The notes under the pieces are model-generated. The model saw only the letters and a program-made list of their open reading frames with translations, made no database searches and was not told the DNA's origin. A stretch of DNA of 63,944 nucleotides, the filler included, from Reclinomonas americana ATCC 50394 (taxonomy: Eukaryota): assembly GCA_048213135.1 (NCBI GenBank). It is 10 parts of 10 records of this genome, joined end to end, with 100 filler letters (N's around TTAATTAATTAA, not from the genome) between each part and the next. Parts side by side here need not be neighbours in the genome. Positions count along the whole stretch, not along the records: positions 1 to 7,849 come from AFZH01020809.1; 9 more parts are not named here. One strand, 5' to 3'. This document shows, piece by piece, positions 1 to 62,990 of this stretch. Position numbers and translations under genes: made by a program. Each line of letters begins with the position of its first letter. Position 1 is the first letter of the stretch.

Positions 1-2841
1 CCCGTCACATAGGCATCCGTGAAATCCGCCTCCCTCGCAAACGCCATGCACACATTCACCCCTCGCAGATCCGCCCCCCTCCACACCGTCCTGTGCATCA
101 CCGCATCCCTCAAATCCGCACCCCTCACTCGCACACCCGACAGATCTCGCCCACTGAACGACACTTGTGCCACACACAACACCGTCGCTGCATTTGCTGC
201 TGCTGTCACCACTCGCTCCTCATCCATCTCCCTCGACAACTCAATCACCTCCCACAGCCTCGCTTGCAGTCGAGGAGACCGTCGCACCACCTCCGCCATC
301 TGCTCCACCAATGATGGTCTGTCGTTCAGCAGTCGCACAGCCAACACATGCTGCTGCACATTTTGCACTGTCAACCTCCTCTCTTCATCCCATGTCTCCC
401 ACGCAAACACATGCCGTGCCACACAGTGTTCCAGCAACGACAGATGAACGAATCCCCACTGCATCGTCCCATACCGTCGCACAATCGGACAGCACGCTCG
501 TACATGCTGGTTCTTGGGGCTGAGGAACTTGTCAATCGGTCCCTCATCCACTCGTCGCATGGCAAGCGGTGCACCACCGAAGTCATCCTCCTCTTCCTCC
601 CGATCACGTGCTCGATTCTCCATCACAGACACACGCACTAGATTCTTCTCATGCATCAACCGCGCCAGTCCCTCGCAGAACGAGAGACACGTCTCCTCAC
701 TCGGCACACGCTCCGCACCGAGACGCGTCTGCCTCTCCTGCTCCCTCACAATCCACTGTCGAATGAATCGGTCAAACACATCACATCGAGTTGGTCGCTG
801 TACGCCACTCGCCACCAATTGCGGCAACACGCGAGCCACCACTGCCAGCAGGAACGGATTCGACACCAGTGCATCCAGTCCATGCACACTCCTCAGTGCA
901 TGAATGTACTTTTCGGCAGTCGACCACCGCACTTCACCATCATCATCACGATCACCCACTTGCACCAGTCGCTCAATGTACTCCTCAATCTGCACCTGGT
1001 TAAACGGTGCAATGTGTCGCTCCATCAGCTGTTGCATGCACAACTGTCCTCGTGCATCCACCGGTGCAAAGTACCGTCGATACTGCGTCACACCGCCCAG
1101 TGCCGTCAGAGCGTAGTCGCCTCGGCAGGTGATAATCACCTTCACATCACGACATACATCCAGCTGATTCTTGACAAACAGATTCACACCACGGTACAGC
1201 TCGTCGTATCCGTCAAGCAACAATAGCAGTGGTTCCTCCTTCAATTGCCGCACATCCGACTCACTGAATCCCAACTCGGGAGACAGTCGCTCCAGTGCCT
1301 CCTCCAACAATCGCTCATCGGCATTGCGCAGCGCACCAAGAGGCACACGCACTGGCACTCGTCTGCTCTCTCTCGTCTGCCACCGTCGCCATGCTCGCTC
1401 AGCCAGCATAGACATGGTGGTGGTCTTGCCGGCTCCGCTGTTGCCAAAGAGCACCAACACATGCTGCGAGGTGTTGGTGTCGGAGAGGAAAGTATCCACC
1501 TCCGTCAACAGATCCGTCATCTTGTCTCTTGAGGAGACGTCACGCTCATGGGAGCACATCAGTGGCACATACATCTGCATGTCCTTGCGCACACTCTCGT
1601 CGCTCTGATAGAATGAGAGCTCACGCACCGCCAGTCGATGCAGTCGTTCCTCGAAAGTGCTGATGATGTGCTGGACGTGACGCGCCTCGCTGACACGAGT
1701 GGAGAATCGAGCATGCTCGTCAGCCGTCAATTGCAGTCGTGAGAGGATGGAGAGGAAGACACCACCGTCACGAAGGTAATGCTGCACCGTGTCAAGTGTC
1801 AACAGAAGCTCATCGTGTCTCAGCTTGTTCCTGATGCAGTGCAGTTCCTCCACTGCCTTCCGTTCAGCAGCATCGTCAATCAGCAGCAGCTTGCGACCGT
1901 CATCTTCAACAAAGCCACCATACAGCATGATGGAGGCGAGAGCCGTCGTGTCGAAACCGTCACACGAAGGGTCGGACAACGGATCGGCGTCGAAGGCAGC
2001 ACGCCAGGTCAACAACACCGGCTGCTTCTCCTCAAACAACTTGACTCGAGAGGGATGGAGTGGAGCATGTCGCTCACGCCATGCCTTAACAGCCGCCGCA
2101 TCCATGCCAGCAGGCGTGAAACTCGGCACCCACGCCCGCACATCAAAGTCGGGATGATCGCGACTGAACTGTGCCAGTGCGCGTCGACAGCGGAGACGCA
2201 CAGCCTCCTCCACCACCTCAAAGGCCATGTTGATGCGCTGCGAGTTGATCATGCTGCGCGTGCACACACACATAGTCAGCACAGACTTGCATCGCACGAA
2301 AAACAACCAGGGGAGACAAGGACGAAGGCAAGAAACAAACCGAGTCACTCGCTCCGAGTTGCTGTGCGTTGGCATGAGAGTGAGATGCATGTTGTGCACA
2401 GAGGTGATCCAACACATCCCAAGCACACACCTTCCACTCTCACTCCCACTTGCTCCACTCGACTGCAGCGCCACACCAAGCGTCACACGGACAACAAGAT
2501 GAGTGCATGAGTTGATGCCGAGTGATTTCAACTTTGCTCCGCTCATGTCGTCAGTGTCGAATGCCATTGGCTTCTCCACTCCCACAATCTCCATCCCCCC
2601 ATCTCCACTCTTCTCACGCAGCAAGCGAGTGGCCTCACGCAGCAAGTCCGCGAGAGTGGACATGCCCGACATGTCCTCCACCACCACCGACAGCGATGAA
2701 TCATGCGCCGCGCTCACATTCACAGAGAACTGCGACACACACAAGGACGGTAAGTGACAAGCGATGAGTGAGAAAGAGAAGCGAGGGAGAAGCGTGCGAA
2801 CAACAAGCGTCCCCCACTCAATCAATACAACTCACCGACAT
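1..2841 (-). CDS. NLR-like STAND protein: ubiquitin-like - HEPN - NACHT - winged helix - pentapeptide repeats (3' truncated at window edge)
   Basis: Manual minus-strand translation. ATG at 2841; 6-nt first exon (MS); GT-AG intron 2835-2730; then one stop-free frame from 2729 to 1 (probable in-frame introns 2430-2362 and 2340-2254). Motifs: FDTTALASIM...IRNKLRH (HEPN), YVPL, Walker A GNSGAGKT (1445-1422), Walker B LLLLLDGYDE, KVIITCR, APFNQVQIEEYI, LVSNPFLL, FVHLSLLEH, TAAANAATVL, then SGRDLSGVRVRGADLRDA pentapeptide repeats. Absent from the ORF track because it has no stop in the window. Confidence 0.9.
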
Positions 2842-3163
2842 GTTCTCGTCGCAGTTCTTGGCTTCTTTTCTCGCTCCTCAGGTTGATGTACCTGTTACAC
2901 ACACGTCTCACACACACAGTCGGCTTGTTCTTGTGGCGGTGTACGTTGTGCTGTGCGTGTGATCAATGTCATGCAGGACTCGACGTCTCTTTCTTTTTGC
3001 AGCACGCACGTGTTTGATGGTCACCTGTGTCATGTATGAGAGAGGAAGAGAGTGCGAGGTGAGCGAAAGAGGGGCGCGAGCGAGGGAGAGAGGGACGCGG
3101 GAGCGAAAGGACTCATGTTCGATTCGTTGTTGCACTGAATGTATGTTGTGTGTGTTTGTGCGG

Positions 3164-3210
<47 letters not shown>

Positions 3211-4263
3211 TGAGCGAGAGGAAAGAGTTCTTCTCGCGTGTGTGTATTGATCGCAGAGATGATTCTTATCTCTCCTCTCTCTCCTCTCTTCTCATCGACA
3301 CAAGCAAGGTGAAAATGCAACGTATGCATCTGCTCTCCCCACACACAAAGAGAGAGACCATTGTTTTCACACACCTGCTTCCACACTCTCACTCACACAC
3401 GCCCACACAACATGCGTGCATTCTCTCTCTCCGTTCTCCCCTTTCCTCCTCCCCCCCCCCGCTTCTCCTCCCCGCCCTTCCCCTTCATCCCCCCTCACCG
3501 CCGGCTTCTCCTTCGACGATTCCAAACAGCAACCTCTCCCATTTCTCCGCGAGGAAATCCCCCGCCATCGGTGTCCCTTTTCCCCACCACAACGTGAGCC
3601 ACATGCATACGCTCCCACCACAGCACCACGCACACACACCATCTCGCCAATGCCGATGAAGCCAATCACCGCGCACATGCTAACGTGAGAGATAGGAATC
3701 AAAAGTGTCCTGCACGTACTCTCTCCTGCCTCTCTTCCCTTCCGCCGTGCTCTCCGTGCTCCAATCGCCGTTTACGAATCACTCGGCTTCCGCGTGCTCT
3801 TTGCAGACAGCGACGGAGACGAGGCCAAGAACGCGTGTCTGTCACGCAACAGCATAGAGATACACGTTTTGTGGCACGACAAGTTCGTCGGCAGTCAGAT
3901 CCGCATGGTGCGCGTCTCTCTCCCTCTCCCTCTCCCTCCCTCCCTTCCTCTCTCCCTCCCCTTCTCTCTCTCTCTTCTCTTTCACTTCTTTCTTCCCCCT
4001 CATTCTTTGTCACTTTCCTTCCTTCTGTTCTCCCTTCTCTTCTCCCTCATTCTTTATCTCTCTCCTCCCATCTCTCTCTGCTCTTCTCCTCTCTCTTCTC
4101 TTCTCTCCCCCACTTTACGCATCCCTTCCATGTTGATAATCGACTTCATTCACCAACACAAAAAACAACATCTCAGCTTCACTGAATCAGAACAAAACGC
4201 AAAAAAGCATACTCATCTCCCTTGTCCCTCATTCTCCTTCTCCTTCTTTCCCCCTCCTCCCCT

Positions 4264-7200
4264 CTACTCATCCGTCTCAAAACACGTACTTCCCACCAAA
4301 ACTATAGTGACCGGAAGGGTCCCACTCGCCGCAATAACCACAGGCATCTCGGCCGCCACCGCCACCGCGCCCCAGAAGATGATAGGATACTTTGTCGCCA
4401 ATTTCGTCGTCTTCCACGTCGCGCCACCATCGGTCGACCGCTGGATGTTGGTGGCCTTCGAGCCGTCGAGCCGCGCATACGTCGCATACAGTGAACCGTC
4501 GGCAGCGCTGAGGGTGATGTCGGTGTATAAACTGGCCAGTGCGGAATTGTCGACTCTCGTCCACGTCCGCGCGCCGTCGAAACTCGCGCGAATTCCACTC
4601 GCAAGCGCAGCAGCCAAGACAGTCGATCCCGTACGATCGACCTGCAGCCTGAGAAACTGCGTCACATCAGCCGGCCCGCCAAGAGCGGTCCACGTGACAC
4701 CCAGGTCGGCGGACACGAAGTTCTGGTTGGTGTTGACTTGCGAGGCGTACAACAACCGTCCGTCACCGCTCAGCTGCACGGCGCTCGCGAACGCAAACAC
4801 GCCCACGGGCAAGCTGCGCTGCGCCCACGTGTGACCGCCATCCGTCGACACGGCAATGTCGTCGTCGACGGCGACAGCAGAGACGACAACTGTCGTGCCA
4901 TCCTCGCTCATCGTTATCGACTGAAAAGAGACGTTGGAACCGGTCGACACGCCAGTCCATGTCGCCCCTCCATTCTCGGAGATCCGGACGTCCACCGGCT
5001 TGGCAGTGGTGATGGCGACCAGCTTCCTACCGTCGGCACTCATCACCACGCCGCGCACACGGAGAGAAGCGGTGTTGCTGAGGACTTTTGTCCACGTCGC
5101 GCCCAGGTCTTGCGAAGTGAATACGCCACCGGCTGTATTTGCATACGACGCAGCAAGGTTTCGACCACTGCGGCTCGCGGCAACAGTGGGAACGAAGCCG
5201 CTGAGGAGACCAACCAGTGGGCTCACGCGCTTGATACAAGAATCCGCGCAGATAGCCACAGTTGCCGTCTGCTGCAGGCACACTTGTCCACCAGTGCACG
5301 CCTCCGTCATCGGCGTGCCGGTGCAGGAGAGCACGCTCATGCCGTCGGACGAGCACACGGACTCGCCGACGCCCAGCTGACACTGGCTGCAGTCTGACCC
5401 GAAGAAGCCAGCGGGGCACTGCGGCGGCGCACCGACAGTGACTCGGCCGACGGCAGTCCACGTGACAAGCGTCGTGTTGCCGGCTCCCGGGTCCTCCGTG
5501 GCGAAAGTAAAGCCGCTCACAAACGTCTCGCCGCCGACCACGTGCGTCTGCAACGCCAGCGAGCTGTTCAATACGTGGTGGCTGATCACGGCTCCGCCAC
5601 TGGACTTGGATTTCCAGCCACGCAAGAACAGCTGCGTCGTCAAGGTGGCAGCGAGGAGTCCATTCGGCGCGTCAACCGAAATCAAGCTGACCGCAGCCGT
5701 GAGCGCGTCAGAGGTGTGCGTGGTCTCTGTTTTGGTGGACAGGTGTGAGATGCTTCTCATTACACAGAAAGAGAAAAGGGAGCAGCACACGCACCACCAG
5801 CTCGCATAACAAAGCCCGTGCGGTTGGAAGCATCTTCACGAGCCGGGCCAATGGCAACTCGCGCATATATACAGGCGCTCTACTTGTGCGTCGCCGGTGA
5901 CAACGCCGTTGACGTCGCCATCTGTGCGGCTGACGGATCCGTGTGACAGCACAAAGTTGTCGGAGAGTGTGGCCCCAGTAGCGTCAGGCGATGCCCGTCG
6001 TCTGGCGCGCACGCCAGTCAGTGCGACGGCCAGTGTTGGCACGGATGCAAAGGGATACAAGGCCGACACATTGCGTCGCTTCATTGACCAAGGTAAGTAA
6101 AACACCGCGTTGTATAATGAATACCTGATCTCACTCACCACCAGCACAGACTTGTTGGTGGCTGCACTGAGCCAACCCTTGCTGCTGAGTTGAACAGTGC
6201 GCGAGAGGGTGAAGGCGTCCGAATGATGCACGTAGTACGCGAGGTACGCTGCACGAATATGAATGACGATTGTGAGCACAAAGCATTATCGAGGGGAGTT
6301 ACACCACACACAGACACTCTGTCTTTCCCTCTCTCTCATTCTCTCTCTCTCTCCCTCTCCCTCCGCCTCTGTCTCTCTCATTCTCTCTCAGACTCTCTCA
6401 GTCTCCCATCTCTCTCACTCTCAGTCTCCCATCTCTCTCACTCTCAGTCTTTCTCTCCCTCATTTTCTCTCAGTCTCTCTCAGTCTCTTTTACTCTCTCA
6501 CTCTCTCTTCCATCTCTCTCTCTCTCTCCCATCTCTCTCTCTCTCTCTATCTCTTCTCTTGCATACATACACCAAGCACGAAGACGCACTCAATTCAATC
6601 TGCGACACGTTGGCAGCGTCGACACTGGAGGTCACCACACATGAGACCACCACCTTCTTGTTCGTCACCGCCGGCTCGCCACACAGCACACTGGTGTCGC
6701 CCACAACGTCACTTGCGTCAACACTCGTGTACCCAGTGAGACCGACAAGTACTTGCGGTGTGGCGTAGAACGCACGCGCAAAGGTGAAACTGGTGGTCGT
6801 GCGGGTCGACACCACGCCGACAATCGGCGTCGCCATGGTGTTGAATGCGGATTGCTGCTGCGAATCTGTGCCACCGGTGGTGACAGTCGACTGGGTGGTG
6901 CCCATGGCGGATAGCTGAAGTGCAGCCGACGCCAGGATGCTACCAGTCATCGGCACTTGTCCGACCAACACCGAGTAGCCCGACACCAGCAACTGGCCAG
7001 TCGATGTGTACGGTCCGTTGTTGATGGCGACGCACAGGTTGGCGGCGGCACCGCCCGTCGGTGAATTGGGAGTCACCGACAGGCTGAAGAGGGAACAGCC
7101 ACCGCCCGAGGTCGACTTGCACAGCAATGGACCGAGCACCGTCAACGAAGCACCGACGCCGGTGACCACCGAGTCGTAGACCGGCGTGTCGCTACACTGC

Positions 7201-7815
7201 TGCCCGATGGCCACCAGCTTGAACACCGTGCACGAGTTGAAGCCGTTGGTGATCGAGCCAACGTGGACAATGTTGGCACGCCCAAACGCAAGCACATGCG
7301 GGTTAACAAACGACACGGTTGATGCTGACGACGAAGGCGGATCCACGAGCACAATGGAGCTGTTGGAGAGGAGGAGCAGCGGCGAAGTGGCGGAGGTGGG
7401 ATGGAATCTAGCCAAATAACCGACGGGCCAGTGAGTGAGTGTGTGTCCAGAGACAGCTCAGGCCGGCAACATCAACAAACCGTCCACACAAGTGGTACAC
7501 GCCAGCGGGGGCCACCAAACACGTGCCTGAAGCTGAGGCACCGAGCGACGGAGAGCCAATGTACGTCGCCGTTTCCACCGAGAAGATGACGGTGGTTTCG
7601 GTTACGCCCGCCGGGCCAAGGCTGACGGAAGTGGCTACCACGGGCGAGCCGCTGCAATCGCTGGCGGCATACAGACCGAACACGCCAAGGTCGGGGTTCC
7701 AGGTGACGGACGGAGGAAAGTTGTTGCCCTGAACCGTCAGCACCAGCTGCGACGCTTGGCCGGTGTACAGCGCGGTTGGGGAGCCGTCGGACTCGGCCAG
7801 CGTGACTGCATTCAC
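4264..7815 (-). CDS. Large multi-exon, probably extracellular protein with H-type-lectin-like segments, EGF-like/Cys-rich region and C-terminal BNR/Asp-box beta-propeller (5' end in gap)
   Basis: Six Asp-box motifs in ORF 4264-5790 (TSQDLGATW, ISENGGATW, VSTDGGHTW, VSADLGVTW, ASFDGARTW, RSTDGGATW); CPAGFFGSDC EGF-like motif; FTFARAFYATPQVLVGLTG and FASVPTLAVALTG segments; successive same-strand ORFs 7815-7408, 7415-6498 and 6279-5836. Confidence 0.7.
6320..6560. repeat. CT/GA-rich low-complexity intronic repeat
   Basis: Near-continuous ctctct/ctcagtct runs inside the BNR-protein gene. Confidence 0.8.
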
Positions 7816-7849
7816 AAAGGAAAGGCAACAGTGAGGGGGGGAGCAGGGG

Positions 7850-7949
7850 NNNNNNNNNNNNNNNNNNNNNNNNNNNNNNNNNNNNNNNNNNNNTTAATTA
7901 ATTAANNNNNNNNNNNNNNNNNNNNNNNNNNNNNNNNNNNNNNNNNNNN
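7850..7949. other. Artificial assembly gap linker
   Basis: N44-TTAATTAATTAA-N44 (stops in all six frames). Identical linkers at 11498-11597, 19981-20080, 23730-23829, 36520-36619, 40638-40737, 50196-50295, 55552-55651 and 62781-62880. Confidence 0.99.
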
Positions 7950-11474: not shown

Positions 11475-11597
11475 ACCTCACCTCTACCTCCGTTCTCNNN
11501 NNNNNNNNNNNNNNNNNNNNNNNNNNNNNNNNNNNNNNNNNTTAATTAATTAANNNNNNNNNNNNNNNNNNNNNNNNNNNNNNNNNNNNNNNNNNNN

Positions 11598-16390: not shown

Positions 16391-19300
16391 TTAGAACACG
16401 TCACCGGTGCTGGCAATCTTGACTGTGGTTGTGCACACACACACACATCACGAGGAGTGAGAAGACCTGTGCGCGCGACAGAGCAAATCAAGAACAATGC
16501 AAAACGCAACTGGGCGGATCGCCAGTCTGCGGGCTGCGTTCATGGGGAAAATCACAACTGGTGAGCGAATGCGCGCCGACAGAGAAGAGACGACGATGAC
16601 GACAACAACAACAACAACAACAACGCACCGGTGCTGGAAGGCCAAGTAGCGGCCAGCAGCCCAGGTGCCACCCTCCAGAAGCCTGCGATGGAGCGGGTTG
16701 TTTTTTTTGAGTGTGCGGGAGACGCGACATACTGGAGGAGAACGACAGAAACGCAACTTGGGCAGCGGCAGCTCGTGCTGGCTCACACCCAGACGCTGGT
16801 GCACAATCTTCTCGAGCTCGTCGAGCAGGGCAATGGTCAGCGCACGCCACTCCACCACCAACTCGTCACCAGTGTTGTAGGTCTTGTTCAGGACCTCGCG
16901 CGGGTTCTTCGGGATGAGCACGCCGGCATCGATGAACAAACCACCGTTGCTGCAAGGGTAGCACACAGTCAGCCATCAATCACTTCACACGCCACAGACA
17001 CGACGGACGGACGGACGGACGGCAGGCCAGCCAACTCACCGGTACTCCGGCAGGCCAGTGAGCTGCCACCTGTTGTTGGAAACGAATGCAGCAGTCAGCA
17101 ACGGGTGAGACACACAGTGTGTGCGATTGTGTGACTCACGTGTCGACCAGACGCACGCCAAATCCGTTGAGGATCTCCAGCAGCGAGTAGGTCACCCACT
17201 GCGTGAGCTTGTGGAACGGCACGTACGAGTCGGGCGAGCCAGGCGGGCCCAGCGCAGAGTGCGTCCACTGCGTGCAACAGTGAGCCACAGCGCCATGGAT
17301 TGAGAGTGGGTGAGACGAGGAGAAGGAGAAGACGCAACGGTGTCGCCGAGGTGAGTGCCAGTCGGGTCTGCCGTCGTACGCCACGAGTGAGCAACAGGGG
17401 AGGGTGCACCACGCTAACCATACAATGCCTACTCACCAGGGAACACGTCGCCAAAGCCCTCCACGACGGCGGCCCACAGGACCTTGACCGAGGCGTAGCG
17501 CTTCTGCGAGTCGGTGACCTGCAAGCACGAGGCATTTAACACACCCGGAAAAACAGCACTGGAGTGCGTGCACACACAGACGCAACATGGTGCAGAATGT
17601 AATCGAGCAGGTAGCCCGGGCGGCACACGCCACTGCCCTGACCACTGAAGATCTCCGGCTTGGACTCAAGAGCCTGGCCGAGGCGGCGCAGCATGTTCAC
17701 ACGGCCCTCCACGCCAATCAGCGGGTTCTCGGCGGTGACCTGGTAGGCGCGCTCGAGATCCTCGACCGTGATGGTCTTCAGGCGCTTCGAGTCCGCAATC
17801 TGTCGCCCGCGGAGAGCACACGTGAGTAGGTGGAACCGACTGGGAGATGGTGTACACACACACACACACAGAACACACCTGCGAGCCGTCAGACGACAGG
17901 CCACCGTGGCGGAACCAGTCGTACGAGGCAATGCCGAGACCCTCCGAGCTGTCAAAAACAGTGGTGGTGAGTGGCAAGACAAGGCGAGAAAATCGAATCA
18001 ACAACCCGAACCGAGTAAAGAAGCGACCGCCAGCGTACTCCTTGTCTTGGTAAGCCCACTTGGCGCCGGCACCGGCGTCAGTCAGCACCGACGGCACGAC
18101 GAGGTCGATCAGGCGACGGGTTTGCTCCAGCGACGGGATCTGCGTGTTGCACAGATAGTGCGTGAGAGGAATACTCAGTGAAACTCTTCCCGACTGCAAC
18201 AAAACGCACGCGCTGGGATCGCCAGGTGGCCTCGAGCTCGCCGACACGGTTCACGCCACCAGCCTCAAACTGGCGGAAGCGCGAGTGCAGCGGGATGTTG
18301 GTGATCGGACCAGGGTAACGACGGGCAGTGACCTGCAGCACCAGCGAGGCCACATCCTCCATCCTGCACACACATTGAGTGAACAGCGTCTCGTGCCCTT
18401 TGGCGCATCGGCAGCACGCAACTTGCTCATGTCGATCGAAAAGTGCGTCAGCTTGTCCTGCATGGCCAGGTCGAAGAGCTTGTGCGAGCGGGCGCGCACG
18501 TTCTGCGCCGCACAGAGAGTCAGAGGGAGAAAGCGGGGCGAAATGACACCGCGATAGAGACACACCTCGAGCTTCCACAGATCGCGGACAAGGGCGTCCT
18601 CGGTCTTCGGAGCAAAGCCGGCGTAGCCCTGCACACACGCCATTATTAGCAAGCGATTCGAGAAAAGCTCACAACAGCAGAGGTGACGACGAAACACTGG
18701 CAATCTTGGCGGAGATCTCGACAAAGGCACCCGGCGGCACCAGCTCCTCTGGGAGACTCTCGCGATTCACCACCTCAATACCAGCGCCCACGATAGCCTC
18801 GTACCTGCAAGCAAGTAAAGATGAGAAAAAGAGGCTGCGGAGAGTCGGATAGGATGAGGTGCACGTACTTGTCCTTGGACATGGACAGCAGACGATCGCT
18901 GCACATCGAGAACAAAAGAGCCATACATGAGCGTGCGCCGAGATCAGCAAATACACAAGACACGAAACATCTTCTTGACTCCTGCAAGCAGGTGCCATCG
19001 AAAATGAAACGGGCAGTGAGCAACGAGTACTTCACGTGTGCTGAGTACACAGCAGGAGGCAAACTCACCGAGCCACAGCAGCGGGTCGGGCATCAGCTCC
19101 TGCACACGGGCGTCGACGACACCAGCAATGTTCTCGGTCTGCTGGAAGTACCTGCGCGCATTCGCCAAGGTACACGGCGAGTCAGTCATTCTGTCACGAT
19201 CGCCAAGAACCCCACACACAGGCTTATTGTTACGCAACGACTCCGGACGGTCACCGCCCTTCTGGTAGCGGCGGCTGTTGTACACGCTGTGCAAGAGAAG

Positions 19301-19980: not shown

Positions 19981-20080
19981 NNNNNNNNNNNNNNNNNNNN
20001 NNNNNNNNNNNNNNNNNNNNNNNNTTAATTAATTAANNNNNNNNNNNNNNNNNNNNNNNNNNNNNNNNNNNNNNNNNNNN

Positions 20081-21919: not shown

Positions 21920-24005
21920 ATGAGCGCCGAGTGTGTCCGCGTCATTGTCCGGTGAGTTGCTCTCTTTGTGTGTGTGTGCGCGCGCTCGTGGTTGTGTTGT
22001 TTGCTCACTTGTCTCTCTGTCTCTCTCGCAGATGCCGACCCATGTCGGATAAGGTTCTCTCTTGCTCTCTTGTGTGTGTGTCTGCGTGTGTGTGTGCGTG
22101 CTGACCTGTGTGTGTGTGTGCGTGTCTGCGACAAACAGGAATTCGCAAAGGGTGAGTGATCAAACACACATTGTCTGTGTTTGCGTGTCTGCGCCCGTGC
22201 ATGCGTGTGTGCATGATGCAAGAGAGCGTGAACTGACTGGTGTTCTTCTTCTTCTTCTTCTTCGCGACGCTCAGGATGCCAGCGCATTGTGGAGATGAAC
22301 GACGCGGTGTGTGCTCGCTCAACCTCCTCCTCCTCCTTCTCCCTCCTCTCTCTCTCCTGTTCCTCTCACTCTCTCTCTCTCTCTCTCTGTCTCTCTCCAC
22401 CTCTCCCTCTTTTCTCGGTGTCGTGATACTTGCATGTGTGTTTTTCTGCGTGTGGTCGTTGACATCCTCCTCATTTTCTGCGGAGACGGACTCCGACCGA
22501 AATCGCTCATTGCTCTCGTTCGTCGCAGACCAATGAGGTCTACGTCACCAATCCCAAGGTGTGTGTGTGCGCGCGCATGCTCAGAGTACTGTGTGTGTTT
22601 TTTCAGAAAAAGGGGTGTTGACTCCGATTATTTCCGTCGCAGGAACTGACCGAGTTGCCGAAAGTGTTCACCTTTGATCGCGTCTACGACTGGGAGTTGC
22701 GTATTGAGCGTTTGTGTCTTTTGTCGCCGCTGCTCTCTCGGCGGAGCCTGACATGGTGCTTTCCGTGTCAGGTCGCGACAGCGTGTCGTGTTCGACGAGA
22801 CGGCGCGTCCGATTGTGGAGAGCGTGTTCGAGGGCTATAATGGCACGATTTTCGCGTACGGCCAAACAGGTGCCGGTAAGACGTACACCATGGAGGGCAC
22901 GGCTGGCGATCCCGAGGAGGCCGGTATCATTCCCAACACGTTCCAGTGGATTTTCGATCGGATCTCGAATCAGTCGGAGGAGAAGCAGTTCTTGGTGCGC
23001 GCCTCGTACCTCGAAATCTACAACGAGGACATTCGCGACCTGCTCAGCCCCAACACCGAGGCTCGCCTCGAGCTCAAGGAGAGCGCCGAGAAGGGCATCT
23101 TTGTCAAGGTCTCGTCTTGTCTTCTCCCTTCACGCGGTATTGTCACGTTTGCTCACCCAAGCGCAGGATCTGAAAACGGTGGTGGTCACCAACGAGGACG
23201 AGATGCAGCAGGTGCTGCGCACCGGCAAGAAGAACCGCAAGGTCGGCGCCACGGCCATGAATGCCACATCGTCACGGTCGCACGCCATCTTCACCGTGTG
23301 CATTGAGGTGTCGGAGAAGGGCGAGGACGGCCAGCAGCACATTCGCATGGGCAAGCTGAACCTGGTCGATTTGGCCGGTTCCGAGCGTGCCTCCAAGACA
23401 CAGGCCACCGGCACGCGTCTGCAGGAGGGCTGCAAGATCAATCTGTCGCTGTCGGCTCTCGGCAATGTCATTTCCGCTCTGGTCGACAAGAAGGCGTTGC
23501 ACGTGCCGTATCGTGACTCGAAGCTCACTCGTCTTCTGCAAGACTCGCTCGGCGGCAACACCAAGACCTGCATGTTTGCCAACATGGGACCCGCCGACTA
23601 CAACTACGAGGAGACCATGAGCACTCTGCGCTACGCCAACCGCGCCAAGCAGATTCAGAACAAGCCCAAGGTGCTCTCTTTTCCACACCTCCTTTTTTTT
23701 CTGTGTGTATCTGACACTCGTTCAACCGTNNNNNNNNNNNNNNNNNNNNNNNNNNNNNNNNNNNNNNNNNNNNTTAATTAATTAANNNNNNNNNNNNNNN
23801 NNNNNNNNNNNNNNNNNNNNNNNNNNNNNATGAAACGCACAGCATGCCGAATGTGTACTACTCGTACAAGCCGACTGACTCGAGCCTGGCGCGGCCGCGC
23901 TCGCAGAAGAAGAAGAAGTCGGCACGCAAGGAGACACCACCGACCGCCGCCGAAGCCTTCCCGCAATCACGTGGCCTCGTGTCGTCCTCGAAGCGTTTTA
24001 TCTGA
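21920..24005 (+). CDS. Kinesin-2 motor subunit (KIF3/FLA10-like); middle part lost in gap 23730-23829
   Basis: [132 protein letters not shown]. After the gap, the terminal exon MPNVYYSY...[15 protein letters not shown] has the kinesin-2 tail motif. Confidence 0.92.
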
Positions 24006-36519: not shown

Positions 36520-36619
36520 NNNNNNNNNNNNNNNNNNNNNNNNNNNNNNNNNNNNNNNNNNNNTTAATTAATTAANNNNNNNNNNNNNNNNNNNNNNNNN
36601 NNNNNNNNNNNNNNNNNNN

Positions 36620-40637: not shown

Positions 40638-40801
40638 NNNNNNNNNNNNNNNNNNNNNNNNNNNNNNNNNNNNNNNNNNNNTTAATTAATTAANNNNNNN
40701 NNNNNNNNNNNNNNNNNNNNNNNNNNNNNNNNNNNNNTGTATGTGTGTGTGTGTGTGTGCACGCATGCAATCACCACGCGCAACTGAGCATGTGCGTGCA
40801 G

Positions 40802-49800: not shown

Positions 49801-51662
49801 GATGTCTGCCGTGGCGTAGCACAATCATACGGCCCGGTGGTCGTGGTCACCACCAGGCAGATGCTCGGTGAGCAGGTGCGACTGATGTTCCCTTTGATGC
49901 GCACGGTCGTGTTGCCGCTCGGCTTTCTGGACGAGGGCGATGTTTCGTTTTTCTTGGAGAAGACTGGCTCCTCCGAGGCCATGCGAGCAGCAGCCGATGT
50001 GTGCATCAACAGATCGGCGCTGGAATTGGCCTTGGCCAACTGGTAGACTCTCCTCCAGTCGTCGTGTGTGTGCATCCACGGCGCGACAACAACTTACGGG
50101 TACTTTTTGCGTGCAGGACGTTGCAGAGAGCGCCGAATGTTACAGACGTTCGAGCGCAAGTCATGATGGGTCGAGATGCAACCAGTATTCTCGATNNNNN
50201 NNNNNNNNNNNNNNNNNNNNNNNNNNNNNNNNNNNNNNNTTAATTAATTAANNNNNNNNNNNNNNNNNNNNNNNNNNNNNNNNNNNNNNNNNNNNCTTTT
50301 GCAAGCAGCGAAATCTCACCATTACTCCACGTCTGCAGCCTGGCATCGTTGGCAGACATGCCCAGTGTTTCATTCGCTATGCTGGCGGAACTGTTGCCGC
50401 TGGTTCCCGACCCGCGACACGGTGGTACCCTGCCATTGGGCACCAGCGCTGCGCTCGCCAGCAAGGGCTTGATCGACGGGAGAGCGCCGGTCGCCTCTTC
50501 ACGTGTGGATTCGAGTGCGTTGACCGAGGCCCTGACACCACTTGTGCAACTGGGGCTGGTGCAGTGCACGGCCATGGAGAGTGCTGCCGGTGTTTGCTTG
50601 GCATCTCCCCGACACGGCCGCGTCACGCGACATTCGACGTACACGTTGCATCGCATGTGGAGTGTGCATCTGCAGCAGCGTCTGCGACGACTGTGCCTGA
50701 GTGTGCGTGCATCGTGTTGCCGCGTGTTTGTTCGATGGGTCGAACAACTCGCATCACCGTTGCCGTGGGTTGAGCACTCTCGGTTGCTGCCACATCTGGA
50801 CTTTGTGTGGCGGCAGTTCGAGGTCGGCGAGCTGCAATCGGCAGTGTGTCGTACGTTGAGCACTGATGAGTTGCAGCGCTTTGTGGAGGCGTTTTGCTGC
50901 CTGGCCGAGGATGTGCCGCCAGTGTACGAAGCGCACGCTGCGCGCTTCATCCGCCTTCTGCACACTGAGGAGCGCACACGGAGAAATGCGACCACTCCAC
51001 CCACCGGACTGTTTGGCAGCCAGCTCCCACGTCTGTACAGATTAGCACGCATGGTTCCTCCGCCACAGCCAACAACAACAGCGACTGCCGGTGGGAGTGG
51101 TGGTGGTGGTGGTGGTGGTGGCCATGGGAGTGGCGTGTTGAGCGGCGCATCACCATCGACACGGCACACCACTACTCAGGCGCTGCTGAACCAAGTGGGT
51201 GCCACGGGGAGCACGCTGTCGGGCGCCCCCATTGTTCCTTCACACAGTGCGCTACTGTATGTGGAGCAGCAGCAACAGCAGCAGGCGGCAGCAGCGGCAC
51301 AGCGCGGAAGCGCATCGCCGACGCCAACTGCGCCACCGCCGCTGGAGCTCTCTGCAGCGTCGGCGTTGGACACCTCGGCCGAGTTGGCGCGATGCGAACT
51401 GTACGCCAGTGCATTGCAGCACGCCAGAGAGGTGATGGCGGAGAGTCGCTTGCTGGCGAATGATCTCAACCACGTCTCCTTCGGCGTGTCGGTGCTGGAG
51501 TCTGTGGTCGCCGGACAAATGGCACAAGCCCTCGCATTGTTGGCTGGCTACTTGGAGGTACTGCCCTCGCACTTCCATGGCGGCGCGCCCCCTGTCGGCG
51601 TCCGTTTCCTTCGTCAATTGTACGAGGCGCTGGCTCGCACTCACCAGCGAAAAAAACTGTAA
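40802..51662 (+). CDS. Giant dual-STAND protein: NACHT - SH3 - Pro/Ala repeats - linker - NB-ARC - winged helix/helical C-terminus (spans gap 50196-50295; 5' end in gap)
   Basis: NACHT: GTLGCGKT (40817-40840), ILIIVDGYDE (41120-41149), PFSNAQIDDFL, YRHRVIRDYMAA, TAAANSHFVL. SH3: VALYERQP..ELPMCVGQVFRVLKEDESGWW..GIVPHNYI (~42830-42990). NB-ARC: FVVIEGPEGVGKS (P-loop 49339-49362), KLLLLENVTDVAQLASFLP, VVVVTTR, LGFLDEGD. After the gap: LTPLVQLGLVQ..YTLHRM. A frame-preserving GT-AG exon chain can be traced from the end of the NACHT region (~42470) to the gap at 50195 with no stop; splicing inside the NACHT region was checked only partly. Confidence 0.75.
43930..45845 (+). repeat. Coding tandem repeat, 231-nt (77-aa) unit with 222-nt variants
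   Basis: Nine copies of PPAVVD(A/V)AGALDAIRRASP within ORF 43673-46156, interleaved with KPEDLR(Q/H)ST and Ala/Pro spacers. Confidence 0.95.
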
Positions 51663-52952: not shown

Positions 52953-55914
52953 TCACGACGCAGTTTTTGGAGTTTTCCCATGCGCGCCACCAGCTGCGCC
53001 CGCGAGGCTGTCGGGTCTGACGAGCCGGGCGACAAGTCGGCGCCCACCAGCGACGCCTGTGTTGTTTGCATTCAGACGACGGAAGCTCACGCTTCGATGT
53101 CCATCATCACGTACCGCCAGTGCCGCTGCCGGCGCCACAAGTCGCGGCGAGGACAGAGGAGCTGAGAATGTGCTACCGGTGCCACCGAGGCCGAGACCGC
53201 CACCACCGTTCTCTGCGGCGTTGCGTAGCGCTGCTGCTTTCCGATCCAACTCCATTGCTCGTTCAGTCTGCAATCTTTCGCGTCTCTCCACCGCCTCCTC
53301 GCGGCGAGCGAGCTGAGGTACGAGGCAGATGGTCGACGACGATCAGGCATGTTGTGCACGAGGGGTGGAGCGACGAGTGGCACATGCACGCAACTGCCTC
53401 GGTTTTCACCACCAGGTCGTTTTTCGATATCTCCAGCTGGTTGGTCAACAGCTCCACTTCGCGTTGTCGTCGTGTCAACTCCGCAAAGACAACCTCACGC
53501 TCGGAGAGTACCTGTCGCTGCCGCATGATTTCCTTCTCTTGCTCACGCAGCTGGAGAGCAGCAGTAACAGCATGAGTAGGCAGGCATCCGGGGAGAAACA
53601 CGCACACAAACATCAAGCCCACCGTGGTTGCAAGCTGCTCCAACTCGGTGCTCTGTTTGTTCAGCTGCGCAGAGCGTGCGTCAAGTTGCTGCTTGGCGAC
53701 TGCTGAGCGGCTTTCTGCTGATTGCACGTCGGCTAGTCGTTGGCGCAACGCTGCTTCTTGTCGCTCCAGTGCATGTGCACGCGCATCGTGTAGTTCCCAC
53801 GACGTAGAGACGTCCTTTTCTGCCTCTGCCACCTGCAAGTTGAATTGAGAAGACATGGTGGTGGTGGTGGTGGTGGGGGTGAGAACCAAGTCAACGGAGA
53901 AAAACCGACCTTGGCAGACCGAATGTCGAGTGCCGCCGCGGCATGTCGTAGCGTCTCCTCGCGCTGCTCCAGTTCCACTTGACGAGACTTCACCTCGGTC
54001 TCCAACGTTGACGCCTGTGTGTGTGTGTGTGTGACGGGAATAAATCAGCCTTTGCATACTTCGGTTCGCGGCAAGTCAGCACGCAGTACCGCTTGCATCC
54101 GCGTGAGTACGTCCTGATGGTCGGATCCCAGCGAATGTGCCAGCGGCCGTACCTGTCGCTCACGCTCCGCGACACGCTTTTCACGCCCTTCAACCTGCAG
54201 CAAACGAGAGAGAGTATACAGGTTGAGGAATGAGTGTGAGGCAATGTGGGCGCCGAGATCACGTCTTCGTACCTCCAGCATTCGTTGCGTGGTGGACTTC
54301 TCAGTCAGCTCGCTCGCGTACTCCCGTGCGCGAACAGTGGCCTCCCGCTCGGCCACCACTGCTTCTCGTTGCTGGCACTCACTCTCTCGCTTCTCGACTT
54401 GGTGGAGACGCGCCTGTAGTGCGGTGAGCAGCTGGTCGGCGTGCTCCTTTTGTTGTGCCACATGGCGGCCACGCTTGGAGAGCTCGCCGAGAATGTCTTC
54501 CACTGCGCGCACTGCGTCCGACTGCCCAATTCACCACACAGTCAACGGGCGACGACTCTTACACAGTGCCCCATGCGATCAACGACAAGCACACGGAACT
54601 CGAGTTTGGGCCGAGTACCGAGGAGACACGGGATCTGGCGGTCGGCTGGTCGGTGTAGCCAGTGCGCCCGTCGTTGGCGGTACTGGTGCGGAAACAAACA
54701 AGAAAACGGCGTCAACGGAGACAACAAGGAGCACGACGCCACACATGCACATGCACGAGGCGCAACTGTTGGCCTGTGCCGCCAAGCCACCAGTGTCCGA
54801 GTACGAGAGGAGCGACTCCAGTGTCGAGCGAGTACCACGCAGTTCGCGCTCCATGGCTTGCACCTGAACGCACACACACCCGCACACACTGTGTGAGCCG
54901 CATGTACGACATGCCACGCACAAGCAAGCACATACCGTGGCCTGCAGGGTCACTACGTCTGTTTCAAAGTTGTCCAGCTCCTGCTTCCTGGCGTTGAGTT
55001 CGTCCTCAGCCACACGCACGGCACGCTCCCGTTGCTCCACGCGCACGGCGGTCTCCGTCAACTCGGCCAGCTGCTTCTCCAGCTGCTCGTGCAACTCTCG
55101 CAGCATGTCATACTCCATCGAAGCGACGCCACTGGATCGCGACAGTTCTGCATCACGCGGCATGCGCGTGCGAAGGTCGATGATATCGCGGATCCACACA
55201 GGCGGCTCCGCTTCGGAAGGATCTCTTGGCGCCGACGGCACCGCCGCGGCAGTCGCATCCAACCGCAGTGGAGGCACACGCACAGCTGCAATCTGTGAAG
55301 ACGGCAGCAACTCATCGCCGAGGACTGCAGTAGGAGTACACAAAAGTGAGTGCGGTGGATCAACACAGAATCAGCAAGGCTGCTCAGCCGACACACACGA
55401 ACCCGACGGTGGCCGACTGAACGCCAGCTCCGCAGGCGACACTCGTCCAGACGATCCACCAGAGAGCGGCACTATGGCGGGCGACTGCTGCTGTGCCGCT
55501 GCAGCATTGGACAAGCCCGCCGGCTCACCACCGTTCACGGTGAGGCGCGGTNNNNNNNNNNNNNNNNNNNNNNNNNNNNNNNNNNNNNNNNNNNNTTAAT
55601 TAATTAANNNNNNNNNNNNNNNNNNNNNNNNNNNNNNNNNNNNNNNNNNNNGGTTGCTGTTGTTGTTGCTGTTGCAATCGCAGGGCGCGCTGCTGGTGAT
55701 CGTAATGCCTCCGCTCTCGTGGTGACACCAACACTGTCGGCATCAGCGACGATATCGAGGACACGGTGGAGGCGGTGGCGGTGGCGGACGGTAATGAGAA
55801 CGAAGGAGAAGAGGAGGACACAAAGCGCGGTGTCAGCCAGGTGAGCGACACGCTCGAGGCGGCCGGTGCGGCAGGGCCTTGATGCCGTGGAGGCGAGTAC
55901 ACTGGTACTGACAT
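52953..55914 (-). CDS. Multi-exon long coiled-coil protein of unknown function (spans gap 55552-55651)
   Basis: Heptad-rich exons (LRELHEQLEKQLAELTE, LHQVEKRESECQQREAVVAERE, LREQEKEIMRQRQVLSERE); probable first exon MSVPVYSPPR at 55914 is open into the gap. Confidence 0.55.
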
Positions 55915-62652: not shown

Positions 62653-62990
62653 TTCTCTTTCCGTCTCGCTCTGTCAAAAAATGCAACGAAAGGACCGACG
62701 TCGACGATCGACGGCGAGGTGGCTCTTTTTACCATCGTCGTCTCTAGTTGCTACCTGCCTCCCTGCCTGCCTGCCTGCTTNNNNNNNNNNNNNNNNNNNN
62801 NNNNNNNNNNNNNNNNNNNNNNNNTTAATTAATTAANNNNNNNNNNNNNNNNNNNNNNNNNNNNNNNNNNNNNNNNNNNNAGATCTCTCTCTTCTTCTCT
62901 CTCTCTCTCTCTCTCTCTTCCTTTCCTTCTCTCTCTCTCTTCCTCCTCTCTCTCTCTCCACCAATCTCACCCTTGTATCTCGTTCCACAG

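Follow-up and report, generated by a model that had tools for sequence, protein, structure and literature searches.

The left end of the window (the whole stretch of DNA analysed here, 63,944 nucleotides from Reclinomonas americana ATCC 50394, assembly GCA_048213135.1, in ten joined parts) carries a long minus-strand reading frame. A first-pass annotation had proposed that it encodes an NLR-like receptor with, in order, a ubiquitin-like header, a HEPN ribonuclease effector, a NACHT domain and pentapeptide repeats. The question raised by this locus is how much of that architecture holds, and in particular whether a protist gene places a HEPN nuclease in front of a NACHT switch.

The frame comprises 941 codons and is open from position 2825 to the left window edge (ORF 3..2825, 3′ end open). 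All peptide strings quoted at first pass were recovered on the minus strand in this single frame, with FSVNVS starting at 2729, HLVVRV at 2501, FDTTAL at 1955 and CIRNKLRH at 1838; in the last of these, R332 corresponds to 1832-1830 and H337 to 1817-1815. The proposed N-terminus needed amendment, in that FSVNVS lies in the open frame but the initial 'MS' requires an ATG-TCG (2841-2836) spliced over 2835-2730 to position 2729. A tblastn search found no paralogues of the gene within the window. The features discussed below are the following:

3..2841, minus strand: visible portion of the gene; the coding sequence leaves the window at its left end, within the pentapeptide repeats
2839..2841, minus strand: putative start codon ATG (2841-2839)
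2836..2841, minus strand: putative exon 1 (ATG TCG), placed by ATGTCG followed by GTGAGT
2730..2835, minus strand: putative intron 1, 106 nt, GTGAGT...TCGCAG, with splice-like ends
2431..2729, minus strand: putative exon 2, ubiquitin-like candidate plus Gly/Ser-rich tail, from codon usage and Atlas leads
2475..2729, minus strand: ubiquitin-like candidate core, residues 33-117, within exon 2
2254..2430, minus strand: putative intron 2, 177 nt, AAG/GTGTGT...CGCAG/C, in frame and without stops
1716..2228, minus strand: HEPN-like domain, apparently of Swt1 type, residues 200-370, from profile, alignment, Atlas neighbours and shuffles
1950..1952, minus strand: D292, candidate for the acidic active-site residue in HEPN helix 2, from alignment to Swt1-like domains
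1815..1832, minus strand: R-N-K-L-R-H, candidate Rx4H RNase motif (R332, N333, H337), from translation and alignment
1461..1715, minus strand: helical linker ahead of the NACHT, residues 371-455; core homology starts at residue 388
1116..1460, minus strand: NACHT P-loop NTPase core, from Pfam PF05729 and invariant motif residues
1422-1445, minus strand: Walker A GNSGAGKT, residues 461-468, in the NACHT
1200-1229, minus strand: Walker B LLLLLDGYDE, residues 533-542, in the NACHT
1122-1124, minus strand: R568, the TCR arginine, in the NACHT
174..1115, minus strand: post-NACHT helical region, residues 571-884, common to the NACHT-pentapeptide-WD40 family
3..173, minus strand: pentapeptide repeats, residues 885-941, cut by the window edge, from Pfam PF00805; aligns to the pentapeptide part of the fungal protein P0002

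The NACHT-pentapeptide core and its relatives

NACHT domains are marked by a Walker A motif (GxxGxGK[ST]), a Walker B motif (hhhhDGxDE) and a conserved arginine after strand 4 (sensor 1). A complete NACHT with these elements, followed by pentapeptide repeats, had been read in the frame at first pass, and both parts proved sound: the Pfam NACHT family (PF05729) matches residues 456-570 with 37.6 bits against a cut-off of 26.7, and the pentapeptide family (PF00805) matches residues 888-922 with 22.9 bits, above its cut-off of 20.2. In a five-sequence alignment of the gene with four fungal homologues, neither the Walker A and Walker B residues nor R568 vary, and the NACHT NTPase is intact.

Relatives of this core were found in both fungi and bacteria. 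The Mortierellaceae protein P0002 is 27% identical over residues 388-938 (BLASTP, E 1e-48), and an alignment-based genome scan recovered 31 matching loci in bacterial MAG records, the best with an E-value of 4e-56; the same prokaryote scan with a single-protein query returned no loci. Overall, the relatives share 25-30% identity from residue 388 to the window edge. A scan of NCBIfam gave no model close to any cut-off, and a PADLOC scan gave no defence-model match beyond weak P-loop hits. On the strength of these alignments, the core can clearly be assigned to a NACHT-pentapeptide-WD40 family of the type found in Mortierellaceae and intracellular bacteria. In a quick FastTree phylogeny the gene forms an isolated long branch, without a well-supported sister.

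The expectation that proteins of this type continue into WD40 sensors was borne out among the relatives, in which WD40 repeats follow the core in all 10 bacterial-MAG loci examined and in three of the four fungal homologues scanned, P0002 being the one without a listed WD40. The opposite end of the protein is far more variable. Across 19 loci scanned, the N-terminal module was ARM_5 in 11, with a calcineurin-like phosphoesterase, a PARP catalytic domain and SMEK_N found once each; one further locus had only sub-threshold TPR hits, two gave nothing beyond weak sub-threshold matches, and the last two gave no hit. HEPN was found in none of these 19 N-termini. Because the modules vary in this way among relatives, the N-terminus of the family is an interchangeable slot, and enzymatic effectors occur in it.

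The HEPN-like region ahead of the NACHT

The R-N-x3-H motif reported at first pass is present at 1832-1815 as RNKLRH. According to the part of PMC3710099 drawn on here, HEPN active sites carry Rx4-6H with a polar N, D or H after the arginine, together with an acidic residue in helix 2; the gene reads R332-N-K-L-R-H337, with N as the polar residue. Taken alone the motif is weak evidence, and the 941 amino acids contain the pattern R[NDH]xxxH three times, where 0.34 occurrences would be expected. We therefore evaluated the region around it with several kinds of sequence comparison.

First, when short fragments spanning the motif were scanned, HEPN_Swt1 (PF18731) was the one Pfam family to appear. 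Its matches (E 0.073 and 0.12, 13.1-13.8 bits against a cut-off of 27.5) cover profile positions 73-101 of 115 and were seen in only two of the seven fragments scanned; longer pieces (residues 192-440 and 33-125) gave nothing at E<=10. The helix-1 region of a Swt1 profile also gave a weak match to residues 155-171, within putative intron 2 (E 0.26), which we judged to be chance. The DZIP3 family (PF18738) was absent at E<=10 from all six fragments spanning the HEPN-like region, so that the assignment to the DZIP3/hRUL138 family made at first pass found no support there.

Second, we used a custom profile of 41 bacterial Swt1-like HEPN domains, which matched residues 319-347 with an E-value of 3.5e-5 when searched against this one sequence (Z=1). 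A comparison with the Swt1-like profile in hhalign gave P 4.8e-4 and a probability of 32% over 55 columns, including the D-T-T-A-L helix and D292. None of 5000 shuffled sequences reached the custom-profile score, and only seven of 5000 did so when R, N and H were held fixed, which suggests that residues flanking the motif contribute. When all 1221 six-frame segments of the window were scored, the gene came only second on this profile (E 0.24 at that size), behind an unrelated segment that lacks the catalytic R; the profile score thus carries weight only insofar as region and hypothesis had been chosen in advance.

Third, a MAFFT alignment placed residues 200-370 collinear throughout with the 41 Swt1-like domains. 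The gene is identical at nine of the 19 columns that are at least 85% conserved (L217, W249, D292, R322, E327, R332, N333, H337 and D345). At the motif columns the family has R in 40, N in 36 and H in all 41 of its members, and the column of D292 is D in 37 of 41. Three family-conserved positions beside the motif differ in the gene (W to L335, A to R336 and R to L342). From this alignment, and the helix-2 acidic residue described in PMC3710099, D292 is a candidate for the catalytic acidic residue.

Lastly, protein-language-model neighbours of the region in the Atlas score 0.91-0.92 and are mostly HEPN clusters, with 12 hits in the HEPN_Swt1 set and seven in the HEPN_DZIP3 set; nine of the ten best named hits belong to one clan. 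The HEPN_DZIP3 set, in whose best cluster PF18738 is carried by 11% of the members, is the only lead towards DZIP3. In these comparisons the domain resembles the Swt1 type more than the DZIP3 type, and a HEPN effector ahead of the NACHT receives moderate support from them. The HEPN identity claimed at first pass thus finds moderate support in the Swt1-profile, shuffle and Atlas signals and in the sole Pfam match, although all Pfam HEPN scores are sub-threshold. What the comparisons show is a sequence-level resemblance between the N-terminus and HEPN domains of the Swt1 type, and from it we infer the HEPN fold.

Direct homology searches and fold matches count among the points against the HEPN reading. 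A phmmer search of 1.84 billion representatives with residues 192-400 (209 aa) gave no homologue at E<=0.001, and residues 200-400 had no match at E<=10 in a word-indexed search. PDB sequence searches with the HEPN region and with a profile of its HEPN-family alignment gave nothing significant, the best matches of the latter including HepS (E 0.32). An AF2 model of residues 200-420 from the single sequence had a pLDDT of 46, and one using the HEPN-family alignment, which makes it partly circular, had 61.6. Both models, low in confidence, put the motif where one helix finishes and another begins, which is the position that PMC3710099 describes for it in HEPN domains. Foldseek with the alignment-based model found no match at E<=0.001, and VIA-align returned only generic helical matches with Z of 5-7, placing the yeast Swt1 C-terminal domain (4pqz) at rank 28 (Z 5.2), AbiF at 38 and Csm6 at 50, within the noise band of helical bundles. 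The expectation that the region would model as a HEPN bundle was thus unsupported as stated.

These results bear on an alternative in which residues 200-370 form a lineage-specific helical domain outside HEPN, such as an adaptor or another effector, with the motif and the weak Swt1 similarity coincidental; this would leave a NACHT-pentapeptide(-WD40) receptor with some other output. Such a domain would be consistent with sub-threshold HEPN scores throughout, an unrelated window segment outscoring the gene on the same profile, the threefold occurrence of R[NDH]xxxH, the lack of homologues and of a standout fold match, and the non-HEPN N-termini of the 19 relatives. We nevertheless regard it as unlikely, given that the sole Pfam match, the custom profile and hhalign with their shuffles, and the language-model neighbours agree on the clan and on the residues, that flanking positions appear to contribute to the score beyond the motif itself, and that the domain aligns in order with the family from end to end, helix-2 aspartate included.

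A second alternative retains the HEPN fold and removes its RNase function, the domain acting as a dimerisation or regulatory module like the eukaryotic Swt1 HEPN. In Table 1 of PMC3710099 the PIN-fused HEPN of Swt1 is entered as 'Inactive', and the three altered positions beside the motif would also be in keeping with lost activity. This reading seems improbable to us, since R332, N333, H337 and D292, all linked to catalysis in the account of PMC3710099, are present and aligned to conserved columns, and since the domain occupies the effector slot in which relatives have phosphoesterase or PARP enzymes.

A candidate ubiquitin-like header

The stretch upstream of the HEPN-like region had been described at first pass as a ubiquitin-like header; it has weak leads in the Atlas, and sequence searches of Pfam and the PDB matched nothing to it. 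Codon usage across 2431-2729 points to the ORF frame as the coding one (log-odds +0.15, against -0.44 and -0.71 in the other two), as it does in the HEPN part (+0.34 against -0.38 and -0.59), and no ORF-frame preference was seen in the flanking putative introns or in upstream DNA. The Atlas neighbours of the header score 0.88-0.89, with few shared features and a recognition value of 2809, and ubiquitin or Rad60-SLD makes up four of the five named neighbour sets. Judged by eye, the pattern of hydrophobic residues would fit a beta-beta-alpha-beta-beta-beta grasp. No ubiquitin-like Pfam family was found at E<=10 in seven fragments, and a sequence search returned no ubiquitin-like PDB chain at E<=10.

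The header depends on a particular gene structure. The candidate intron 1 has negative codon-usage log-odds in all three frames, and its acceptor is similar to the acceptors of a kinesin gene elsewhere in the window. The ubiquitin-like and HEPN-like stretches are separated by some 60 codons (residues 133-191) whose sequence is odd and Cys-rich; this segment would fit a putative in-frame GT..AG intron of 177 nt (2430-2254). This candidate is the best of 37 frame-keeping GT..AG pairs, and it scores -0.12 in ORF-frame codon log-odds; alternatively, 2254..2430 may encode an odd Cys-rich linker. The ubiquitin-like header, which requires both putative introns, is a plausible candidate.

It is nearly an even question whether the header is absent altogether, with translation starting at M192 or M200 and 2825-2253 being 5′ UTR or a chance open run, although we lean slightly against this. 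The proposed 85-aa piece has no family or structure match by sequence, and the first of the two introns would leave an exon of two codons. An open run of 167 codons has a chance of about 3% at the stop frequency of the window, where 99 of 2605 stop-to-stop runs reach that length, and the family alignment starts at residue 210, near M200. Against a headerless protein stand the codon preference of 2431-2729, which resembles that of the known coding part, the recognition value and predominantly ubiquitin or Rad60-SLD neighbour sets in the Atlas, and the apparently grasp-like hydrophobic pattern. A later start would affect no part but the header and would leave the HEPN-NACHT-repeat reading intact.

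Proposed function and comparison with known systems

Taken together, we consider it probable that this is an intron-bearing eukaryotic gene for a STAND/NLR-like receptor, most likely combining a diverged Swt1-type HEPN effector with a NACHT and repeats. The C-terminal sensor would consist of repeat modules, of which the pentapeptides are seen and WD40 propellers would be expected past the window edge; the intact NACHT NTPase would be the central switch; and a highly diverged Swt1-type HEPN, with its R-N-x3-H site and helix-2 aspartate intact, would be the N-terminal effector. In this scheme, a non-self or altered-self ligand bound by the repeats would release the NACHT, which would exchange nucleotide and oligomerise, and oligomerisation would bring the N-terminal HEPN domains together. 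The Rx4H sites, now paired, could act as a metal-independent RNase on RNA of the cell or of an invader, leading to growth arrest, cell death or virus restriction.

A more specific proposal is that a receptor of a free-living flagellate joins a NACHT-pentapeptide-WD40 chassis circulating between eukaryotic hosts and their intracellular bacteria to an orphan Swt1-type HEPN RNase and a ubiquitin-like N-terminal cap. We hold this full combination to be rather doubtful. The capped arrangement occurs in none of the 19 N-termini of relatives examined; such a cap might restrain the RNase, or couple its activation to the ubiquitin system.

If the HEPN reading is true, nuclease-armed NLR-like receptors, documented so far in bivalves, cnidarians, other animals, Capsaspora and bacteria, reach a flagellated protist. 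Elsewhere the chassis is known from Mortierellaceae fungi and from intracellular or endosymbiotic bacteria, a distribution consistent with effector-swapping and with host-symbiont gene exchange shaping eukaryotic innate immunity. The candidate HEPN domain is compact and would lie in a single exon, which suits it to tests of RNase-mediated cell death in a unicellular eukaryote. The gene reveals no new principle.

The closest known designs are the HEPN-NACHT proteins of bivalves, anthozoans and other animals, for which the portions of PMC9646362 and PMC8260672 used here give more than 50 in the pearl oyster and 17-83 in anthozoans; PMC3710099 likewise notes that the DZIP3 family has expanded in Capsaspora. 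Like the gene as read here, these animal proteins are described with an N-terminal HEPN bearing Rx4H (N after R), a central NACHT and C-terminal repeats, the last being LRR, TPR or WD40. Theirs, however, is a DZIP3/hRUL138-like HEPN, whereas the HEPN-like domain of the gene is unrecognised by PF18738 and has a weak affinity to Swt1-like domains; in addition, the gene's NACHT core comes from the pentapeptide-WD40 family of Mortierellaceae and intracellular bacteria, and its host, whose assembly has a kinesin-2 gene with a best match at ~74% identity, appears to be a flagellated protist rather than an animal.

With the Swt1-like HEPN family (PF18731, yeast Swt1 4pqz), the gene shares a collinear domain with nine of 19 conserved columns, including D292 and R-N-x3-H, and an N-terminal position of the HEPN, which is also seen in many bacterial loci with open frames of 1031-1179 aa; it differs in scoring only 13-14 bits, far under the cut-off of 27.5. 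With the NACHT-pentapeptide-WD40 proteins (Mortierellaceae; MAG records of Mycoavidus, Legionellales, Coxiellaceae and Chlamydiae; HET-E-like NLR relatives), it shares a NACHT followed by pentapeptides and a variable N-terminus, but among the 19 examined none has a HEPN N-terminus, and the gene stands apart on its long branch. Antiphage bNACHT proteins follow a like logic, in which sensing repeats and a NACHT switch are joined to an enzymatic effector, with HEPN RNases among the NACHT-fused effectors of bacteria in the part of bioRxiv 10.1101/2022.07.19.500537 consulted; unlike them, the gene is eukaryotic with putative introns, and PADLOC finds only weak P-loop hits in it. The HEPN-NACHT design is thus already known from oysters, corals and bacteria, and this gene would be a fresh example of it.

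The open frame and its genomic setting

The gene occupies a minus-strand frame of 941 stop-free codons that extends from 2825 to base 3, where it leaves the window at its left end; all strings quoted in the first-pass annotation lie in this frame, at the places it named. The window also contains nine identical spacers (44 N + TTAATTAATTAA + 44 N, with a stop in all six frames), and it is therefore made of ten separate contigs, across whose spacers gene order is not real. The gene's own contig spans only 1-7849, and genes beyond it tell of the assembly, not of the gene's neighbourhood.

Spacers and other genes in the window
7850-7949, 11498-11597, 19981-20080, 23730-23829, 36520-36619, 40638-40737, 50196-50295, 55552-55651, 62781-62880: spacers
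4264-5790, minus strand: ORF with BNR/Asp-box and Sortilin-Vps10-like matches, sharing the gene's contig piece
22634-23685, plus strand: kinesin-2 (KIF3/17-type) motor gene, cut by the spacer at 23730

The kinesin-2 gene, whose best database matches have about 70-74% identity, is broken by short GT..AG interruptions of roughly 60-80 nt ending in CAG, and short GT..AG introns are present in R. americana. The searched collection returned no near-identical match for host proteins (best kinesin ~74%). The kinesin-2 gene and its distant matches suggest a flagellated host with a proteome absent from that collection. The assembly also encodes TELO2.

For the gene itself we infer an exon model with two putative introns. 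The first concerns the N-terminal string proposed previously, most of which lies in frame while its initial 'MS' falls outside; these two residues would need ATG-TCG (2841-2836) to be spliced over GTGAGT...TCGCAG (2835-2730) to 2729. Some 60 odd, Cys-rich codons lie between the candidate ubiquitin-like stretch (residues 33-117) and the next recognisable part (from M192/M200); here the second putative intron, 2430-2254 (177 nt, AAG/GTGTGT...CGCAG/C), has the best splice-like ends among 37 frame-keeping GT..AG intervals. When codon usage was scored as log-odds, with the NACHT part of the gene as training set, 2431-2729 looked coding-like in the ORF frame only (+0.15 versus -0.44 and -0.71), the same signature as in the HEPN-like part (+0.34, -0.38, -0.59); it was absent from both putative introns and from upstream DNA. 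The upstream stretch 2842-3700 has many (CT)n/(GA)n and (TG)n microsatellites and no codon-usage frame preference, and looks like a eukaryotic intergenic region.

Whether the product begins with a ubiquitin-like header is evenly balanced in our judgement. Counting in its favour are the codon signature of 2431-2729, which favours the ORF frame, and the long open frame, a run that would arise by chance in ~3% of cases. The residue pattern is, by eye, compatible with a beta-grasp, and in the Atlas, a protein-language-model neighbour map, the segment had a recognition value of 2809, with four of its five named neighbour sets being ubiquitin or Rad60-SLD (0.88-0.89, few shared features, and thus leads only). 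Counting against it are the required first exon of two codons and the HEPN family alignment, which starts directly beside M200. Pfam searches with seven header fragments and one PDB sequence search gave no match.

The NACHT-pentapeptide core and its relatives

The core bears out the domain calls made earlier: Pfam recognised NACHT at residues 456-570 (37.6 bits, cut-off 26.7) and Pentapeptide at 888-922 (22.9 bits, cut-off 20.2), and the Walker A and Walker B motifs and the sensor-1 arginine, R568, reported as intact, show no variation when the protein is aligned with four homologues from fungi. The closest relatives of the core, among five matches in all from a 5.8-billion-protein collection, are Mortierellaceae proteins (27% identity, E 1e-48, alignment from residue 388). 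One of the four homologues, P0002, combines ARM_5, NACHT and Pentapeptide; the others (P0003 to P0005) carry NACHT, Pentapeptide and WD40.

An alignment-based scan of prokaryote genomes found a further 31 core-matching loci, in records titled Mycoavidus, Tatlockia, Coxiellaceae, Chlamydiae, Myxococcales, Nitrospirae and Gammaproteobacteria MAGs. WD40 lay downstream of the core match in all ten loci examined. The N-terminal parts of 19 relatives were varied, with ARM_5 in 11, a calcineurin-like phosphoesterase, a PARP catalytic domain and SMEK_N in one each, only sub-threshold TPR in one, only weak sub-threshold matches in two and nothing in two; none of the 19 had HEPN. Because WD40 is consistently downstream and the N-terminal modules vary, the NACHT-pentapeptide-WD40 family is built like a classic NLR whose N-terminal module can be exchanged. 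In a quick FastTree phylogeny of 25 rows, the gene formed an isolated long branch without a well-supported sister.

The family is common to Mortierellaceae fungi and to Mycoavidus, Legionellaceae, Coxiellaceae and Chlamydiae MAG records; Mycoavidus is described as an endosymbiont of such fungi. Some MAG contigs of ~0.5 GC bear an ARM_5 head like the fungal proteins, and these could be host contamination of bins.

The HEPN-like N-terminal domain

The proposed R-N-x3-H motif is present, with R332 at 1832-1830, H337 at 1817-1815 and a polar N directly after R. By itself it proves little, since the protein has three R[NDH]xxxH matches (0.34 expected). A search of 1.84 billion representatives with the 200-residue domain yielded no homologue at E<=0.001; a word-indexed search, taken to E<=10, was also empty, and no paralogue turned up inside the window. 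A Pfam scan of long N-terminal pieces gave nothing even at E<=10. With short fragments around the motif, HEPN_Swt1 alone of 24,736 families was reported; its matches had E-values of 0.073 and 0.12, covered profile positions 73-101 of 115 and lay below the family cut-off.

Profiles were built from bacterial Swt1-like HEPN domains, found in 45/401 genomes of one phylum sample and 12/401 of another. The first sample returned 30 loci, of which 29 entered the profile (one was left out for a wrong frame at a contig end); every one of the 12 loci of the second sample was used. The 29-sequence profile matched residues 319-346, and the 41-sequence profile gave a stronger match there (E 3.5e-5, single-sequence search); with hhalign (P 4.8e-4, probability 32%) the matched stretch grew to 55 columns and took in the D-T-T-A-L helix. 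Shuffles of residues 200-400 reached the real 41-sequence score in 0/5000 cases, or 7/5000 with R, N and H held in place (29-sequence profile: 0/2000 free, 3/2000 motif-fixed), and the reversed sequence scored 1.5 against 9.8. In a window-wide control the gene ranked second of 1221 six-frame segments (101,203 aa), with E 0.24 at that search size, behind one segment:

17518-17826, plus strand: unrelated open segment that scores slightly above the gene with the Swt1-HEPN profile (8.7 bits), without the catalytic arginine

We take this segment as a chance match because that arginine is missing, and its score is a reminder of the profile's noise level. For a region specified in advance, the profile evidence therefore amounts to about one in a thousand; in a blind search it would not hold up.

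Residues 200-370 are collinear with the Swt1-like family in a MAFFT alignment, and they share the family residue in nine of the 19 columns that reach >=85% conservation across the 41 domains (L217, W249, D292, R322, E327, R332, N333, H337, D345); beside the motif, three family-conserved positions differ (W->L335, A->R336, R->L342). The DZIP3/hRUL138-like assignment made initially was not upheld, as its Pfam model, PF18738, was never reported at E<=10 for six fragments from this region and both profile methods led to Swt1-like HEPN; in this protein the 'FD-T-T-x-L' feature cited for it is the counterpart of the D-[VIL]-[SA]-A-L-L helix of Swt1-like domains. Atlas neighbours (0.91-0.92, 174-179 shared features) included both the HEPN_Swt1 set (12 tallied) and the HEPN_DZIP3 set (7), with one clan holding nine of the ten best named matches. 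The domain may be equidistant from the two families.

The AF2 model of this region made from the single sequence had a pLDDT of 46, and the one made with the HEPN-family alignment had 61.6; the latter is partly circular because it was built on that alignment. Both low-confidence models place the motif where one helix ends and the next starts, the position given for HEPN in a section of PMC3710099. Foldseek found no match to the predicted structure, and VIA-align against 48,161 chains gave helical matches only (Z 5-7), all inside the tool's helical-bundle noise band; they include the C-terminal domain of yeast Swt1 (4pqz) at rank 28, with Z 5.2 over 112 aligned residues, AbiF at rank 38 and Csm6 at rank 50. 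Taken together, we consider that the N-terminal domain probably has a HEPN fold, and that it is a reasonable, somewhat less secure candidate for an active RNase.

Possible mechanism and comparison with known systems

The analysis shows only the domain content of the gene product; its trigger, oligomerisation, dimerisation and catalysis are proposed on the model of NLR/STAND proteins and HEPN RNases, as treated in parts of PMC3710099 and bioRxiv 10.1101/2022.07.19.500537. A ligand would be sensed by the repeats, upon which NACHT would oligomerise and bring the N-terminal HEPN domains together, and the paired Rx4H sites could then cut RNA, resulting in arrest, death or virus restriction.

N-terminal HEPN domains on NACHT proteins are abundant in bivalves and anthozoans according to passages of PMC9646362 and PMC8260672, a section of PMC3710099 lists HEPN-NACHT for animals and Capsaspora, and bioRxiv 10.1101/2022.07.19.500537 names HEPN among bacterial NACHT protein effectors. 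As the combination already occurs in these groups, the gene is a further case of a known design. Its particular features are an orphan, Swt1-leaning HEPN-like domain, a pentapeptide(-WD40) chassis common to Mortierellaceae and intracellular bacteria, an intron-bearing eukaryotic host and, possibly, a ubiquitin-like cap.
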